Origin: Escherichia coli
Lineage (GTDB): Bacteria; Pseudomonadota; Gammaproteobacteria; Enterobacterales; Enterobacteriaceae
Length of the DNA stretch: 64,000 nucleotides
NCBI RefSeq assembly: GCF_016026235.1
Contig: NZ_CP065613.1
Reading direction: 5' to 3' (one strand)
How positions within the stretch are numbered: position 1 is the stretch's first letter; every line of letters starts with the position of its first letter. This document shows positions 1,029 through 32,950 of this stretch, piece by piece. The notes beneath the pieces were generated by a model that had not been told where the DNA came from, did no database searches, and saw nothing but the letters and a program-made list of their open reading frames with translations. Position numbers and translations under genes: made by a program.

Positions 1029-2465
1029 TCAGCGTTTGTAACCCCCGCCCAACGCACCAGTGAGTTGAATGGAGGCATCCAGCCACTGCCCTTGCAATAA
1101 CAGGCCATTGGCCCGCTCACGCAGCGCGGGGATTCTGGCTTCGCTGACGCGGGAACCAGCAATGATGCCCGCGTTAAAGCGCGCCTGCGCAAGACCTACC
1201 ACACGCAAGGCATCGCGCTCAATTTGCGCCTGATGCTGGTTTTTCTCCGCAAGTGTCTGAACGTGACTGGCTGCCCGCGCCACGTCATTCACCGCTTCAA
1301 CCACCGCTTTGTTGTAGCTGGCGATAGACAAGTTGCTTTCGGCTTTTGCGATATCAAGATTGGCGTTAAGACGACCACTATCGAAAATGGGTAGCGTCAG
1401 GCCTGCCGTAACGCCCATTTGCTGCGCGGAATGACGGAACAGATCGCTTAAGTGCAACGCATCCTGTTGCAGGAAGGCCATCAGGTTGATGTCAGGATAA
1501 AATGCCGCTTTTGCCGCATCAATGGTGCTTAGCGATGACTCAACGTACCAGTGCGCCGCCTGCAAATCTGCCCGCCGCGCCAGTAAGGAGTACCCCAGTT
1601 CATCAGGAAGCTGGCTTGCCACTTTCGGCAACGCGACCGGTTTAAGCTTCAATGACTTAGTCTGGTGATTTGTGAGTGCATTTAACCGTGCCTCAATAAT
1701 TTTCATTTTCCCCGCGACATCGTTGAGCTGCTGCCGGGTTTTGCTGGCATTAATATCGGTTTCCACACCTTCAACTGAAGAAGTAATCCCGTTCTGATAT
1801 AGCTGGCGATCGGTCGCGATAATGGTGTTCTGCTCTTTTTCGATTTGCTGCAAGACAGTGTTTAACGCCGCCTGGGTTTGCCACTCCCAGTACAGGCGGG
1901 CTACGCTGCCAGCCAGCAATTGGCGGGTTTGCTCGCGTTCCGCCGCCCGTGCTTTAACCGTACCCTGGCGGGCAGTAACCTCCGCCCGATTCTTTCCCCA
2001 GATATCGAGATGCCAGCCCGCCGTTAAGCCAAAAGTACCGTTGGTGTACCACGGACCGGTCGTACCTGCGGCCGGATCGTTCAGAGCAAACGGCCCCATT
2101 AGCCCTTCTGCCGACATTTTTTGCCGCTCCATATCCGCAGAAAAGTCGATCTGCGGACCATCCTGAGTGGCAACTGCCTTCGCCTGGGCTTCAGCTAGCT
2201 GAATGCGCTGTTCAGCCACCTGCATATCCGGTGCGTTCTGTAGTGCATTGTTAATTAATGAAGTGAGTTGATTATCGTGATACTCCAGCCACCATTGGCT
2301 GTCTGGCCAACCATTTTTCAGCGCCGTGGGTAATGCGGTGTCAACTTGTGCAGCGGGCGTTTGCTGGCTTAACGCCTGGCGGGTTTCATGCATAGGCGCA
2401 CACCCGGTCAGCATCAGTAACAGCGGAAAACAGGCGATGGCTGGATAAAAGGAATCACGATTCAT
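1029..2465 (-). CDS. mdtQ: Outer-membrane efflux lipoprotein MdtQ (OMF/TolC-like family), uninterrupted 478-codon frame
   Basis: ORF 1029..2555; conserved start MNRDSFYPAIACFPLLLMLTGCAP (lipobox LTGC) at ATG 2465; full-length OMF-like sequence with no internal stop. Confidence 0.85.
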   Translation of the reverse strand: MNRDSFYPAIACFPLLLMLTGCAPMHETRQALSQQTPAAQVDTALPTALKNGWPDSQWWLEYHDNQLTSLINNALQNAPDMQVAEQRIQLAEAQAKAVATQDGPQIDFSADMERQKMSAEGLMGPFALNDPAAGTTGPWYTNGTFGLTAGWHLDIWGKNRAEVTARQGTVKARAAEREQTRQLLAGSVARLYWEWQTQAALNTVLQQIEKEQNTIIATDRQLYQNGITSSVEGVETDINASKTRQQLNDVAGKMKIIEARLNALTNHQTKSLKLKPVALPKVASQLPDELGYSLLARRADLQAAHWYVESSLSTIDAAKAAFYPDINLMAFLQQDALHLSDLFRHSAQQMGVTAGLTLPIFDSGRLNANLDIAKAESNLSIASYNKAVVEAVNDVARAASHVQTLAEKNQHQAQIERDALRVVGLAQARFNAGIIAGSRVSEARIPALRERANGLLLQGQWLDASIQLTGALGGGYKR

Positions 2466-2688
2466 GGGGGAATAATCAGGTAAGAAAAGGTGCGCGGAGA
2501 TTACCGTGTGTTGCGATATATTTTTTAGTTTCGCGTGGCAATACATCAGTAGCAATAAAACGACATATCCAGAAAAATATACACTAAGTGAATGATATCT
2601 TCCGATTTATCTTAATCGTTTATGGATAACGGCAAAGGGCTTCGTTTTTTCCTATACTTATTCAGCACTCACAAATAAAGGAACGCCA

Positions 2689-2772
2689 ATGAAAATTATA
2701 CTCTGGGCTGTATTGATTATTTTCCTGATTGGGCTACTGGTGGTGACTGGCGTATTTAAGATGATATTTTAA
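2689..2772 (+). CDS. yohP: Small membrane protein YohP (27 aa)
   Basis: ATG 2689 preceded by AGGA; translation MKIILWAVLIIFLIGLLVVTGVFKMIF* is a single TM helix matching the recalled YohP sequence. Below the ORF-track length cutoff. Confidence 0.7.
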   Translation: MKIILWAVLIIFLIGLLVVTGVFKMIF

Positions 2773-2889
2773 AAATCAGATATGACATATAAGTTGTCAG
2801 GTCAGGAACTAGATATTTTGTGTACTTGATTTGCAAACAGCTCCGGTGTTGGTGGCGTCAAAATCGCTGAAGCGTTCCACGAAGGCCGG

Positions 2890-3110
2890 GGCAGCCCACA
2901 TGGATGTGGGCTGAGGGCGCGTCTTACAAGGACGTTTCCTCGCGCCCGACCCGGTAGCCGAAGGGGATAAGCTGAAGGTACCGCGCAGCGGCGATTTTGT
3001 TCGCCAGAGCCCGGGGGTGCAGGGGGAGGAGGCGATTGTCCTCCCCCTGCGCGCTCCTTGCGCCAGTGGCAATATGTGGCTTAGCTCATGAAAGGAGCGC
3101 AACAAGATGA
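2890..3110. other. GC-rich cluster of hairpins/palindromes of unassigned family between yohP and dusC
   Basis: Perfect or near-perfect inverted repeats: gcccacat-gg-atgtgggc (2894-2911); gggcgcg...cgcgccc (2915-2947); cagggggagga-ggcgattg-tcctccccctg (3020-3049); gcgctcctt...aaggagcgc (3051-3110). GC content far above the flanking AT-rich DNA. Confidence 0.4.
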
Positions 3111-3159
3111 TGAAGCTGAATAAGCGATTCATTGTCTCTGATAAACTGCGATTCCACTA

Positions 3160-4110
3160 TTATCGCAGCTTATCGATATCAATTGCCTGAATAGCCCTTG
3201 CAATATCAGGGGAATTATTCAACACCCGAACATGCTGAAATAATTCTGTTGCTTCATCGTATTCTTTACGCAAATAACTCAACCACTGTTTAATCCGCGC
3301 TACGTGATATAACCCGGTATCGCCCTGCTTTTCCAGACGGGTATATTTTTGCAGCAAAGCAACCACCTCCGGCCACGGCATTCGCGGTTCGTTATATTTT
3401 ACTACCCGGCTCAGGTTGGGAATATTGAGCGCCCCGCGACCAATCATCACTGCGTCGCAGCCGCTGATCGCCATGCATTGTTGCGCGCTCTGCCAGTCCC
3501 AGATTTCGCCGTTGGCAATCACCGGAATATTCAGCCGCTGGCGAATCTCGCCAATCGCCTGCCAGTCAATATGCTCCGCGCGGTAACCCTGCTCTTTTGT
3601 CCGTCCATGCACCACCAGCTCCGTAGCACCAGCCTGTTGAACCGCATCGGCGATTTCAAATTTCTTCTCACCGCTGTCCCAGCCCAGACGCACTTTCACG
3701 CTGACGGGCAAATGCGCCGGTACAGCTTCACGCATCGCTTTTGCACCCTGGTAGATGAGTTCAGGATCTTTGAGTAACGTTGCCCCACCACCGCTGCCGT
3801 TGACCGTTTTCGACGGGCAGCCGCAATTGAGATCCACGCCCCAGGAACCTAATTCCACCGCACGGGCGGCGTTCTCTGCCAGCCATTGTGGGAACTGACC
3901 CAACAACTGCACGCGCACCAGCGTACCGGATGGTGTCCGGCTGGCGTTTTGTAGCTCAGGGCAAATGCGATGAAAAACTTTTACCGGCAGCAGTTGATCC
4001 ACCACGCGGACAAACTCGGTGATGCACAGATCGTAGTCGTTAACTTCGGTCAGCAATTCACGCACCAGAGAGTCAAGCACACCCTCCATCGGAGCCAGTA
4101 ACACACGCAT
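3160..4110 (-). CDS. dusC: tRNA-dihydrouridine synthase C
   Basis: ORF 3160..4176; conserved start [13 protein letters not shown] at ATG 4110; Dus-family TIM-barrel sequence. Confidence 0.9.
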
Positions 4111-7739: not shown

Positions 7740-7853
7740 AAGGCGACAAGTGAGTGAGTCCCCAGGAGCTTACATAAGTAAGTGACTGGGGTGAGCGAAC
7801 GCAGACGCAGCACATGCAACTTGAAGTATGACGAGTATATTAGCGTTCGCCTT
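7740..7853. repeat. ERIC/IRU (enterobacterial repetitive intergenic consensus) element
   Basis: Contains aagtaagtgactggggtgagcg (identical to the ERIC2 primer sequence) and gtgagtccccaggagcttacat (one mismatch to the ERIC1R complement); terminal inverted repeats aaggcga...tcgcctt. Confidence 0.85.
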
Positions 7854-31086: not shown

Positions 31087-32021
31087 TTAACCCGCGAGAC
31101 GCTGATATTCTTTGGCAATTTCGCTCGCCAGAATGGCGTTGTTGAACACCAGCTGGATGTTGGATTTCAGGCTGTCACCGCCGGTCAGCTCAGCAACGCG
31201 CGCCAGCAGGAATGGCGTACTTTCTTTACCAATAACACCCTGCGCTTCAGCTTCAGCTACCGCCTGATCGCCGCATTGATAGTGTGTTCCGGCATAGCAA
31301 ACTGTTCCGGGATCGGGTTCGCTACCACGAGGCCACCGTTCAGCCCGCTTTGCCATTTCACCGCCATTGCACGGGCAATTTCGCTGGCGCTGTCGAGACG
31401 AATGCTGACGTCAAACGGGCTGGTACGGCAGAAAAACGCAGGCAGCGCTTTAGTCTGATAGCCAATTAACGGCACACCGAAGGTTTCTAAATACTCAGTG
31501 GTTAATCCTAAATCGAGAATAGATTTCGCCCCGGCACAAACAACGGTGACATTAGTATTTGCCAGTTCTTGCAAATCGGCAGAAATATCGAAGGTATGTT
31601 CCGCCCCGCGATGAACACCACCAATTCCCCCGGTGGCAAATACTTTAATTCCGGCAAGCGCCGCAATAATCATCGTTGAAGCCACAGTGGTTGCGCCATT
31701 TTTTCCGGCGGCAACAACAAAAGGTAAATCGCGACGACTAACTTTGGTCACGTTATGCCCTTCACGACCCAGTAATTCAATTTCTTCTTTGCTTAAACCC
31801 ACTTTCATCACGCCACCAATAATGGCGATAGTGGCAGGTACTGCGCCCTGTTTACGAATAGTTTCTTCAACTTCAATTGCGGTCTGGGCATTTTGTGGGA
31901 ACGGCATCCCGTGAGAAATAATGGTCGATTCCAGCGCCACAACCGGTTTTTTGTTTTTTAAAGCGTCCTGCACTTCCGGGGAAATTTGTAATAATTCAGG
32001 GGAAATTTTTAATTCAGACAT
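31087..32021 (-). pseudogene. psuG: Pseudouridine-5'-phosphate glycosidase with a disrupted reading frame
   Basis: N-terminal 252 residues in ORF 31257..32021 (ends ...PEHTINAAIRR*); conserved C-terminal 60 residues DQAVAEAEAQG...EYQRLAG are in another frame (ORF 31087..31356). Frames meet at plus 31261-31274 cgcctgatcgccgc. Confidence 0.75.
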
Positions 32022-32950
32022 TCTGCGTTCTCCACTAACGATATAACGTTGGCAATCGATAAATCGGGGTTATTGGTGTATTCACAGGAGAGCGCCATTG
32101 ACGAACATCCCTGTGCGAAACGAACAGATTCGGCAAACGGCATTCCGTCTACCCAACACGAAGCAAGTCCCGCCATCATGGCATCGCCCGCTCCGGTAAC
32201 ATTAATAACATTGGTTTTGATCGAGGCAGACCAGCCACTTTCACCGCTGATTTCACTGTAATAAACGCCATCGCCGCCCATGCTCAATACCAATCGGTTC
32301 AGGCCATGTTGATGGAACCAGGCAGCAACTTTTGCCACATCTTCACGCCCTGACAGCGCAATCCCACTCAGTGTTTCCGCTTCAAGGCGGTTTGGCTTGA
32401 GAGTATGGATTTGACTTAATCGCTCGCGTACTTTGACGCATTTCCACGCGGAAACCGGATCGACAAATACGGGTACGTTGGCAGCATTATCCAGAATCCA
32501 TGCCAGTGCCTCTTCACTGATATTACAGTCCGCGACAATGACCTTTGCCCTCTGAATAAATTCACGGTGCTGTGCGAGATATTCAGCTGTAATAGCGTTG
32601 CTAATATTCATGTCATTTATAGCAACCAGCATTTCACCAGTATTATCGAGTAATGATAAATAGCTCGACGTATTTTCTCCCGGCACAATCAGGCATTTAT
32701 CGACATAAACGCCAGATTGATTGGTTTGCGTTAGCAGCGATTGGCCATAAAAATCACTGCCTACGGCGCTCAGTAGCCAGGCTTTATTACCCAGCAACGC
32801 CAGGTTTTGTGCAATATTGCGCCCTACCCCACCAGGCGTAAATTTTATTTTACCTGGATTTGAATCCGCATAATTTAATGATTCATGTGAATATCCGGCG
32901 ACATCAATATTCGCCGAGCCTATAATTACGACATAATCCTTTTCGCGCAT
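32009..32950 (-). CDS. psuK: Pseudouridine kinase (PfkB family)
   Basis: 313-aa ORF MREKDYVVIIGSANIDVAGY... with GGVGRNIA motif; overlaps the psuG start by 13 nt. Confidence 0.9.
   Translation of the reverse strand: MREKDYVVIIGSANIDVAGYSHESLNYADSNPGKIKFTPGGVGRNIAQNLALLGNKAWLLSAVGSDFYGQSLLTQTNQSGVYVDKCLIVPGENTSSYLSLLDNTGEMLVAINDMNISNAITAEYLAQHREFIQRAKVIVADCNISEEALAWILDNAANVPVFVDPVSAWKCVKVRERLSQIHTLKPNRLEAETLSGIALSGREDVAKVAAWFHQHGLNRLVLSMGGDGVYYSEISGESGWSASIKTNVINVTGAGDAMMAGLASCWVDGMPFAESVRFAQGCSSMALSCEYTNNPDLSIANVISLVENAECLN

Follow-up and report, generated by a model that had tools for sequence, protein, structure and literature searches.

Assignment of a GC-rich palindromic block between yohP and dusC of Escherichia coli to the TRIP1 repeat family, with two predicted CsrA-type loops in its 5′ domain

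INTRODUCTION

TRIP1 repeats, GC-rich non-coding sequences in the intergenic regions of Escherichia, were catalogued in 1999 (Rudd 1999) and revisited by Li et al. (2024), and their function is given as unknown (PMC10888264). Five types occupy fixed loci: a at aqpZ/ybjE, b at putP/ycdN, c at yohG/yohI, d at alx/sstT, and e at copA/ybaP (PMC10888264). The repeats have a GC content of 62 to 65% and a length of 146 to 273 bp, with 84 to 94% similarity among types, and each type sits 38 to 96 bp downstream of a stop codon (PMC10888264). Types d and e occupy 23% and 3% of genomes, respectively; copies at loci a and c are known in either orientation, and 156 TRIP1-mediated rearrangements, mainly of a with c, have been reported (PMC10888264). 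For TRIP1c, the published locus runs from yohG (mdtQ)/yohP to yohI (dusC), about 43 bp past the dusC stop codon (PMC10888264).

The alignment of a second family, the Rfam motif TwoAYGGAY (RF01731), includes several copies from the single genome of Psychromonas ingrahamii, and its authors remarked on very long P1 stems (Weinberg et al. 2010). Binding of CsrA to TwoAYGGAY has been proposed earlier on motif grounds (PMC4333381). The SELEX consensus of CsrA is RUACARGGAUGU, in which ACA and GGA are invariant, typically in a hexaloop closed by AC/GU, and the CsrA dimer bridges sites 10 to 63 nt apart (PMC7652899). In the literature searched, a link between TRIP1, TwoAYGGAY, and CsrA was not found, and the only recent TRIP1 paper mentions neither TwoAYGGAY nor CsrA (PMC10888264).

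Here, a GC-rich block was analyzed in a 64,000-nucleotide stretch of E. coli DNA (the window), and its identity, orientation, fold, and relatives were compared with these systems. No mechanism has been put forward for TRIP1 since 1999, and the combined link to TwoAYGGAY and to the CsrA motif makes its function testable.

RESULTS

Assignment of the block to TRIP1c

The spacer between yohP (2689 to 2772, plus strand) and the convergent dusC (3160 to 4110, minus strand) spans 2773 to 3159 and holds a GC-rich block of about 285 bp, at 2831 to 3116, packed with inverted repeats. The GC content was 0.62 to 0.67 in 100-nt windows across 2850 to 3099, compared with 0.33 to 0.39 on either side. A preliminary description of this DNA had reported such a block, and its GC richness and all of its described repeats were recovered; the extent that it gave (2890 to 3110) fell inside the block but was somewhat too narrow, since homology to other copies spans 2831 to 3116, with a core of about 265 bp at 2848 to 3111. 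The end of the element lies 44 bp from the dusC stop codon, and the plus strand is the one that bears the GGA loops described below.

The window copy agreed with the TRIP1 family in similarity, position at the c locus, GC content, length, and multi-copy status. In K-12, copies are found between lysO and aqpZ (TRIP1a) and between yohP and dusC (TRIP1c). The identity of the window copy was 92.5% to the former over 255 nt and 88% to the reverse complement of the latter over 272 nt. From the megablast search, these alignments, and the published family (PMC10888264), the block is almost certainly TRIP1c, the yohP/mdtQ-dusC member of the family. The preliminary description had regarded the block as being of unknown identity and had named a match to a known, catalogued family as the outcome that would speak against this; such a match is what was obtained. 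Because the repeat had already been catalogued, the block should not count as a discovery.

A megablast search with 2860 to 3120 as the query found copies in 5425 of the 5426 complete E. coli genomes, with a median of 3 and a maximum of 8 places per genome. Thus, the BLASTN copy-number check suggested earlier returned a multi-copy repeat, with 1 to 8 TRIP1 copies per E. coli genome. No annotated RefSeq feature lay under the match, among the matches listed. Within the 64-kb window, TRIP1c was the sole copy of TRIP1 when searched with a covariance model derived from the family (R1, see below). At the yohP-dusC locus itself, the element was present in 5412 of the 5426 complete genomes and its orientation alone varied, contrary to the earlier suggestion of a strain-specific insertion. 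E. coli, E. albertii, and E. whittamii carry the repeats at orthologous loci, which argues against recent mobility in Escherichia. TRIP1c is inherited vertically at a fixed locus and is carried by virtually all E. coli.

Divergence among the Escherichia copies was 2 to 12%, a level that could be near-neutral, and the K-12 TRIP1b has lost 125 bp. The window copy is mosaic: its 5′ domain was 98% identical to two copies from loci a and b (MDK_a and MB49_b) and its 3′ domain 95% identical to K12_a, and its 5′ half resembles flipped TRIP1a and full-length TRIP1b variants. K-12 is without TRIP1d and TRIP1e; its d site holds another GC-rich palindrome and its e site holds REPs, and comparison of occupied sites with these two K-12 sites gave neither exact ends nor a target duplication. 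The only e-locus example, from a metagenome-assembled genome (MAG; L018), includes 70 bp of the dusC 3′ end and for this reason is either a c/e recombinant or an assembly chimera.

Two stable orientations at the yohP-dusC locus

In K-12, the copy between yohP and dusC has the same flanks as the window copy but reads as its reverse complement. With junction-specific queries, the window type was found in 2002 genomes and the K-12 type in 3410, which together make up the 5412 genomes mentioned above; 63% of genomes thus carry the element inverted relative to the window copy. Each complete genome had one junction type, and the junctions were conserved at 95 to 100% identity. E. whittamii and Escherichia sp. 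E1V33 had the window-type orientation at locus c. Among the matches listed, O157:H7 genomes were of the window type and K-12 derivatives were of the K-12 type, and orientation looks lineage-bound, judged on these few rows. The allele-specific block extends into the final codons of dusC, which end in ...IDIDKLR before the stop here versus ...IDIEKL before the stop in K-12. No recombinase gene was found adjacent to the element, the neighbors being mdtQ, yohP, dusC, and yohJK. Orientation at this locus is a stable two-allele inversion polymorphism and represents neither an insertion polymorphism nor a switching element. The split of 2002 versus 3410 genomes provides a natural comparison of both configurations.

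An origin of the two orientations from independent insertions, with orientation tied to sequence type, was also considered and was ruled out, because window-orientation c copies carry both 5′-domain types and the copies are mosaic. The GGA strand was co-directional with replication at 4 of the 5 loci, judged from element orientations and replichore positions, a count that is not significant, since the loci are few and flips are common.

Fold and domain structure

Perfect inverted repeats of 12 bp (3019 to 3030/3039 to 3050), 10 bp (2892 to 2901/2904 to 2913), 9 bp (3051 to 3059/3092 to 3100), and 7 bp (2915 to 2921/2941 to 2947) were located in the element, together with one of 16 nt at 81% (2859 to 2874/2984 to 2999). 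The 12-bp repeat is the hairpin with cagggggagga and tcctccccctg arms around ggcgattg that had been singled out earlier. The minimum free energy (MFE) was -130.5 kcal/mol for the plus strand (z = -4.2) and -116.8 kcal/mol for the minus strand (z = -5.1), and for each strand 0 of 200 dinucleotide shuffles folded as well. TRIP1c is a folded single-strand element of two domains, a 5′ domain of the TwoAYGGAY type and a 3′ domain made up of a perfect hairpin and then a terminal stem.

The 5′ domain (2854 to 3004, plus strand) consists of an outer stem, P1, an inner stem, P2, and two neighboring GGA hairpins, and was delimited by the RF01731 match, model R1, and covariation; the R1 match to 2854 to 3004 is expected by construction, as R1 was built from the TRIP1 family. 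P1 (2859 to 2999) pairs the arms of the 16-nt repeat, and in the curated 5′-domain structure 92.9% of its cells were paired and 3 pairs had changed on both sides. P2 (2885 to 2955), predicted by the MFE fold from GCCGGG at 2885 to 2890 and CCCGGU at 2950 to 2955, would enclose both hairpins; with 85% of cells paired and zero covariation, it is a weakly supported stem. Hairpin 1 (2892 to 2913) has an 8-bp stem and the hexaloop AUGGAU (2900 to 2905), so that ACAUGGAUGU at 2898 to 2907 forms a CsrA-type site. Its stem covaries (GCCCAC/GUGGGC versus GUCCGCC/GGCGGAC) and its loop is invariant. Hairpin 2 (2915 to 2947), with the base stem GGGCGCG/CGCGCCC, presents a second CsrA-type site at its apex, ACAAGGACGU at 2926 to 2935, 28 nt past the first, and its GGA and GU are invariant across 17 family members.

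In the 3′ domain, the hairpin at 3019 to 3050 has the 12-bp perfect stem and the loop GGCGAUUG. Relative to both K-12 copies, it shows a double compensatory change (GGAGGA/UCCUCC versus GGCGGC/GCCGCC), and more covariation was seen in the D and B types defined below. The terminal stem-loop (3051 to 3100) pairs the arms of the 9-bp repeat; its 3′ arm contains a Shine-Dalgarno-like AAGGAG (3092 to 3097), and in the D and B types the covarying stem reads GUUCAC/GUGAAC. A closing stem of 5 bp, UGUUG at 2847 to 2851 with CAACA at 3100 to 3104, was predicted by the MFE fold and by alignments of the element ends (2847 to 3104); the element has no other terminal inverted repeat.

Covariation across the family and choice of strand

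One genome per species was scanned with an 18-mer from hairpin 1. TRIP1 was found in Escherichia species, Pseudocitrobacter, Kluyvera, and an Enterobacteriaceae gut isolate, and related non-coding elements were found in Edaphovirga (11 loci), Shewanella, a Thiotrichaceae MAG, and Lachnospiraceae MAGs; chance matches within coding sequences were also obtained. The 23 sequences of the alignment used (A3) fell into three subfamilies, namely, A, the D type, which is divergent and comes from E. coli, and the B type, which lies head-to-head with A in Pseudocitrobacter and Kluyvera. Across A, D, and B, the stems covaried, P2 excepted, and the loops were fixed. By RNAalifold, 27 of 54 pairs were kept through changes on both sides. 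In the curated 5′-domain structure, 11 pairs had changed on both sides, compared with 5.5 ± 1.5 in shuffles (0 of 500 reached 11) and 0 to 3 in slid controls.

Perfect palindromes can also gain compensatory changes through DNA template switching, a route that operates without selection on RNA.

The GGA strand folded better in 22 of the 23 copies, and its consensus structure had 119 G-U cells versus 28 on the other strand, an excess that may partly mirror G-richness, since shuffles of the G-rich strand fold better too. Measured against shuffles of matched composition, the two strands were equally structured. The folding models lend moderate support to the GGA strand as the RNA strand. Use of the G-U excess as proof of the RNA strand was rejected; in view of the shuffled controls, it is suggestive only.

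Relationship of the 5′ domain to TwoAYGGAY

In Rfam, the window copy matched RF01731 (TwoAYGGAY) best, full length at 2858 to 2997, with 26.2 bits (E = 0.2), below the gathering score of 43 bits. The other Rfam matches were chance matches of the miRNA/snoRNA type to the GC hairpin only, and no Rfam family passed its gathering threshold for the window copy. By Rfam's criterion, the E. coli copies are not TwoAYGGAY members. The B-type elements next to TRIP1 in Pseudocitrobacter and Kluyvera (L019:2218-2281 and L068:4104-4167) reached 49.2 bits, above 43, and align with TRIP1 along its length up to their truncated 3′ end; the Lachnospiraceae loci scored 72 to 79 bits to RF01731, above the gathering score. 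In the TRIP1 orthologues of Kluyvera genomosp. 3 and MGYG-HGUT-00110, both loops read AUGGAU. In the window copy, the AUGGAU of loop 1 fits AYGGAY, and loop 2 reads AAGGAC in this strain and AGGGAU in K-12, which puts a purine at the first Y.

For the reverse comparison, covariance model R1 was built only from TRIP1-family 5′ domains. R1 matched three Rfam-confirmed Lachnospiraceae TwoAYGGAY elements (L078, L079, and L049) at full length, with E = 7e-9 to 7e-6; these, like the other foreign loci, had been retrieved by the hairpin-1 18-mer, which biases them toward identity in that hairpin and adds about 15 bits to their R1 scores. Shewanella elements and about 35 Edaphovirga copies were also matched at full length, some of the latter without the seed 18-mer at 40.8 bits, and on coding decoys R1 matched the 18- to 20-nt hairpin only. 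The spacing of the two GGA sites was 28 nt in almost every E. coli copy, 27 to 29 nt in Kluyvera/Pseudocitrobacter, and 28 nt in Lachnospiraceae. As with the very long P1 stems remarked on for TwoAYGGAY, the L049 core caps an imperfect hairpin of about 450 nt between convergent genes.

These comparisons indicate that the TRIP1 5′ domain represents a divergent version of the TwoAYGGAY motif in enterobacteria; TRIP1 would work as a TwoAYGGAY element does and is very probably homologous to it. The Drum RNA motif was also considered as a relative and was judged not relevant.

Coding potential, known repeats, and transcription signals

The open reading frame that spans the block (2809 to 3132, minus strand, 107 aa) is spurious, since the stop-free stretches shift frame and strand between copies. 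A coding gene, either this frame or a small frame after AAGGAG, was rejected because the frames are not conserved among the 23 family members. The AAGGAG arm covaries to GUGAAC, which identifies it as part of a stem and not as a ribosome-binding site. With the REP consensus (GCCKGATGNCGRCGY..., 2 mismatches allowed) and the ERIC core inverted repeat as queries, 9 REP matches were found in the window, none of them in 2831 to 3116, and the sole ERIC match lay at 7776 to 7797, outside the element. Several readings of the preliminary description held: the open reading frame is an artefact, the block belongs to a repeat family other than REP and ERIC, and, in line with the suggestion of a structured RNA, it has a conserved fold with compensatory changes. 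The Rfam scan that it proposed gave the RF01731 match described above.

Searches of the element and its flanks, for the window copy and for the two K-12 copies, revealed no sigma-70-like promoter or intrinsic terminator; a U-tract was missing at the element, hence no intrinsic-terminator match. In the supplementary files of a Term-seq study (Adams 2021), no 3′ end was listed next to dusC, yohP, aqpZ, or lysO.

Two predicted CsrA sites

In the alignment, the most conserved features of the family are two predicted loops of the form ACA-N-GGA-N-GU, hexaloops closed by AC/GU. In the window copy, the two motifs (ACAUGGAUGU at 2898 to 2907 and ACAAGGACGU at 2926 to 2935) both fit the SELEX form, and their spacing of 28 nt falls within the range of 10 to 63 nt bridged by a dimer. 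In K-12, hairpin 2 reads UACAGGGAUGU and matches 11 of 12 consensus positions. The pattern ACANGGAYGU occurred at 3 sites in 128 kb of window sequence (both strands), two of which are the TRIP1c hairpins. Typical SELEX ligands have less stable stems than the 8-bp GC stem of hairpin 1 (PMC7652899). In the published CsrA CLIP-seq table for K-12 (Potts 2017), no peak lay over TRIP1a, b, or c, a negative result weakened by the use of one growth condition and by the near-identity of the repeats. The GGA strand runs antisense to its neighboring genes at four loci, a (K-12 type), b, d, and e, where read-through would yield the UCC strand.

DISCUSSION

We propose, at a rough probability of 0.38, a reading that combines the identity of the block as TRIP1c, its conserved fold, and a mechanism acting through CsrA. 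TRIP1c, without signals of its own, would be transcribed within the transcripts of its neighbors. Because no terminator-like site was found between yohP and TRIP1c, read-through from yohP would yield GGA-strand RNA in this strain, and in K-12-type genomes the same strand would form part of the dusC 3′ untranslated region (UTR). Such RNA would display two near-consensus ANGGAN hexaloops of high predicted affinity that one CsrA dimer could bridge, and it would bind or titrate CsrA or place the host transcript under CsrA control. At the DNA level, the copies also act as substrates for homologous recombination, and inversions between TRIP1a and TRIP1c are documented (PMC10888264). Taken by itself, binding of CsrA to TRIP1c RNA through the two predicted sites is a tentative claim, at somewhat less than even odds. 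A broader proposal, which we regard as unlikely, is that TRIP1 is the enterobacterial branch of TwoAYGGAY and serves as a set of modular CsrA-binding domains, in which the stable orientation dimorphism would set which mRNA carries the twin high-affinity sites in its 3′ region, that of yohP in O157:H7-type genomes or that of dusC in K-12-type genomes. If true, this would mean lineage-specific rewiring or titration of the Csr system. On the same condition, a repeat orphaned for 25 years and an orphan Rfam motif would both gain a function.

A rival explanation is a selfish or neutral palindromic repeat similar to REP/BIME or MITE elements, whose hairpins and loops a transposase or recombinase would recognize in single-stranded DNA in the multi-copy lineages; the few fixed E. 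coli copies would be relics with recombination as their sole effect. The multi-copy lineages point this way, with about 35 model matches at 11 loci of Edaphovirga cremea, which frequently form arrays repeating every 313 bp or so and lie on both strands, and with several P. ingrahamii copies in the original TwoAYGGAY alignment. So do the polymorphic occupancy (23% of genomes for d, 3% for e), the two orientations at loci a and c, the mosaic copies, the other palindromic repeats at the d and e sites of K-12, the failure to find transcription signals, the independence of the GGA strand from gene orientation, and the 156 rearrangements (PMC10888264). However, no transposase or recombinase is linked to TRIP1, the terminal inverted repeat is only 5 bp with no visible target-site duplication, and the loci are orthologous across three Escherichia species. 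The loops, moreover, fit the motif of an RNA-binding protein and are conserved from Lachnospiraceae to Enterobacteriaceae. On balance, we consider the selfish-repeat explanation possible but doubtful. A protein-coding gene was also weighed: the 107-aa frame spans the block, and AAGGAG-N7-AUGAUG stands at its right end (3092 to 3112), but open frames that switch frame and strand between copies, a Shine-Dalgarno-like arm that covaries as a stem, and an element inverted in 63% of genomes leave it a negligible chance.

A further candidate role is that of an orientation-independent structure at the 3′ ends of the convergent yohP and dusC transcripts, where very stable GC hairpins on either strand would, like REP, block 3′-to-5′ exonucleases and impede read-through or polymerase collision. 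Each TRIP1 type lies 38 to 96 bp past a stop codon (PMC10888264), shuffled sequences fold far less well than either strand, this convergent locus accommodates the element in both orientations, and the L049 copy of TwoAYGGAY in Lachnospiraceae also lies between convergent genes. Such a role would leave the conserved loops and the 28-nt spacing across taxa unexplained, and the element has neither a U-tract nor listed Term-seq 3′ ends near dusC, yohP, aqpZ, or lysO of K-12. In addition, aqpZ has its own terminator hairpin upstream of TRIP1a, both by sequence reading and by the published account (PMC10888264), and both genes flanking L049 have their own terminators, so we rate this role as quite unlikely. 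The occurrence of both orientations between the same flanks at two loci might also reflect a site-specific, phase-variable invertible switch that sets the neighboring genes. This is very improbable, as a single orientation per complete genome, junctions of 95 to 100% identity, an orientation that seems to follow lineage in the few rows listed, allele-specific sequence reaching into the last codons of dusC, a terminal inverted repeat of 5 bp, and the lack of an adjacent recombinase all stand against it. The preferred reading remains a folded TRIP1c RNA with two loops that may be bound by CsrA.

Compared with the published TRIP1c, the window copy is alike in sequence (88 to 95% to the K-12 copies), locus, length, GC content, and orientation dimorphism; it has the non-K-12 orientation and is mosaic, and otherwise no essential difference was seen. 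With REP/BIME and ERIC (IRU) elements, TRIP1c shares extragenic, palindromic, repeated sequence located after genes, possible stabilization of mRNA 3′ ends, and use as a recombination substrate. In contrast to them, it is without their consensus, greatly exceeds REP in length, occurs in far fewer copies (1 to 8), and has a different conserved core. TwoAYGGAY elements and TRIP1c both have an outer P1 with two adjacent A-N-GGA-Y hairpins, a spacing of 28 nt, and multiple copies in gamma-proteobacteria, whereas the window copy has an extra P2, an internal segment of about 35 nt, and a 3′ domain (3005 to 3104) absent from the Rfam model.

CsrB and CsrC carry 13 to 22 CsrA sites. In comparison, TRIP1c has only two strong sites, much more stable stems, and no promoter or terminator of its own; the features of a sponge sRNA of the CsrB/CsrC type, namely, its own promoter, a Rho-independent terminator, and many GGA repeats, were absent from it. 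TRIP1c nevertheless resembles CsrB, CsrC, RsmZ, and dual-site leaders such as that of glgC in carrying GGA in predicted hexaloops with ACA and GU, at two sites within the reach of one CsrA dimer.

Gene ends and genome position of TRIP1c

The C terminus of DusC and the position of its stop codon differ with the orientation allele of the adjacent TRIP1c element. The window's gene ends in ...IDIDKLR* (window 3160-3180), whereas the K-12 gene, next to the inverted element, ends in ...IDIEKL* (K-12 yohP-dusC locus L004, 3439-3460). Therefore, the allele-specific block reaches into coding sequence. In the same neighborhood, mdtQ (window 1029-2555, minus strand) is an intact open reading frame (ORF) and carries a CDS annotation in FDAARGOS_943, a strain identical to that of the window; in K-12 MG1655, mdtQ is a pseudogene.

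In K-12, TRIP1a lies at about 915 kb and TRIP1c at about 2229 kb, with a midpoint of about 1572 kb, so that the two are nearly mirror symmetric about the replication terminus (dif lies near 1.59 Mb). This symmetry may be the reason why a-c inversions dominate the published TRIP1 rearrangements.

K-12 spacers lacking TRIP1d and TRIP1e

In K-12, the sites without TRIP1d and TRIP1e are occupied by other palindromic repeats: the alx-sstT spacer (L091 3547-3944) by a GGGTGAGGG...CCCTCACCC element and the ybaQ-copA spacer (L090 3561-3875) by REP units. Palindromic repeats seem to use gene-distal 3' spacers as interchangeable landing sites.

Other motifs in the window

An exact ERIC/IRU core inverted repeat was found at window 7776-7797 (plus strand). 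Of the three ACANGGAYGT sites in the window, the third, ACAGGGATGT (32105-32114, minus strand), is located within an ORF on the same strand (32009-32950) and is probably a chance occurrence.

Related elements outside Escherichia

Pseudocitrobacter and Kluyvera carry a pair of divergent TRIP-like elements arranged head to head with a gap of less than 100 bp, as at L019 1859-2137 (minus strand) and 2165-2400 (plus strand); the same arrangement was found in L068 and L089. The B-type element of this pair passed the Rfam threshold for TwoAYGGAY (RF01731, 43 bits), and its stems are completely covaried (GUCCGCC-AUGGAU-GGCGGAC).

In Edaphovirga cremea (L055-L065), TwoAYGGAY/TRIP-like units occur by the dozen on both strands, arrayed at intervals of about 313 bp (e.g., L063 645-1708, L058 3172-4232, and L061 7459-8492). 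The units lie within larger composite repeats, in which AAAGAC-type short tandem repeats are also present. A Lachnospiraceae locus (L049 1400-1830) contains an imperfect hairpin of about 450 nt with a TwoAYGGAY core at its cap, flanked by two convergent genes; each of these genes has a separate bidirectional terminator-like hairpin (1244-1270 and 1941-1967).

Unusual TRIP copies in Escherichia

In a copA-adjacent TRIP copy (L018 300-730), about 70 bp from the 3' end of dusC occur together with the K-12-type TRIP1c flank; the copy is either a c/e recombinant or a chimera of metagenome assembly. Plasmid pMTY11352_3 (NZ_CP134387.1, 88 kb; L003) carries a chromosomal poxB-to-macA segment, in which TRIP1a (L003 4001-4171) has lost about 80 bp internally.

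A more divergent TRIP1-like type was found in E. coli and Escherichia species (L020 8746-9002, L085 839-1085, and L086 318-574). None of the 10 reference flanking genes was found beside these copies. This type shares about 72% identity with TRIP1a. It may represent a sixth, outside the five published TRIP1 types.
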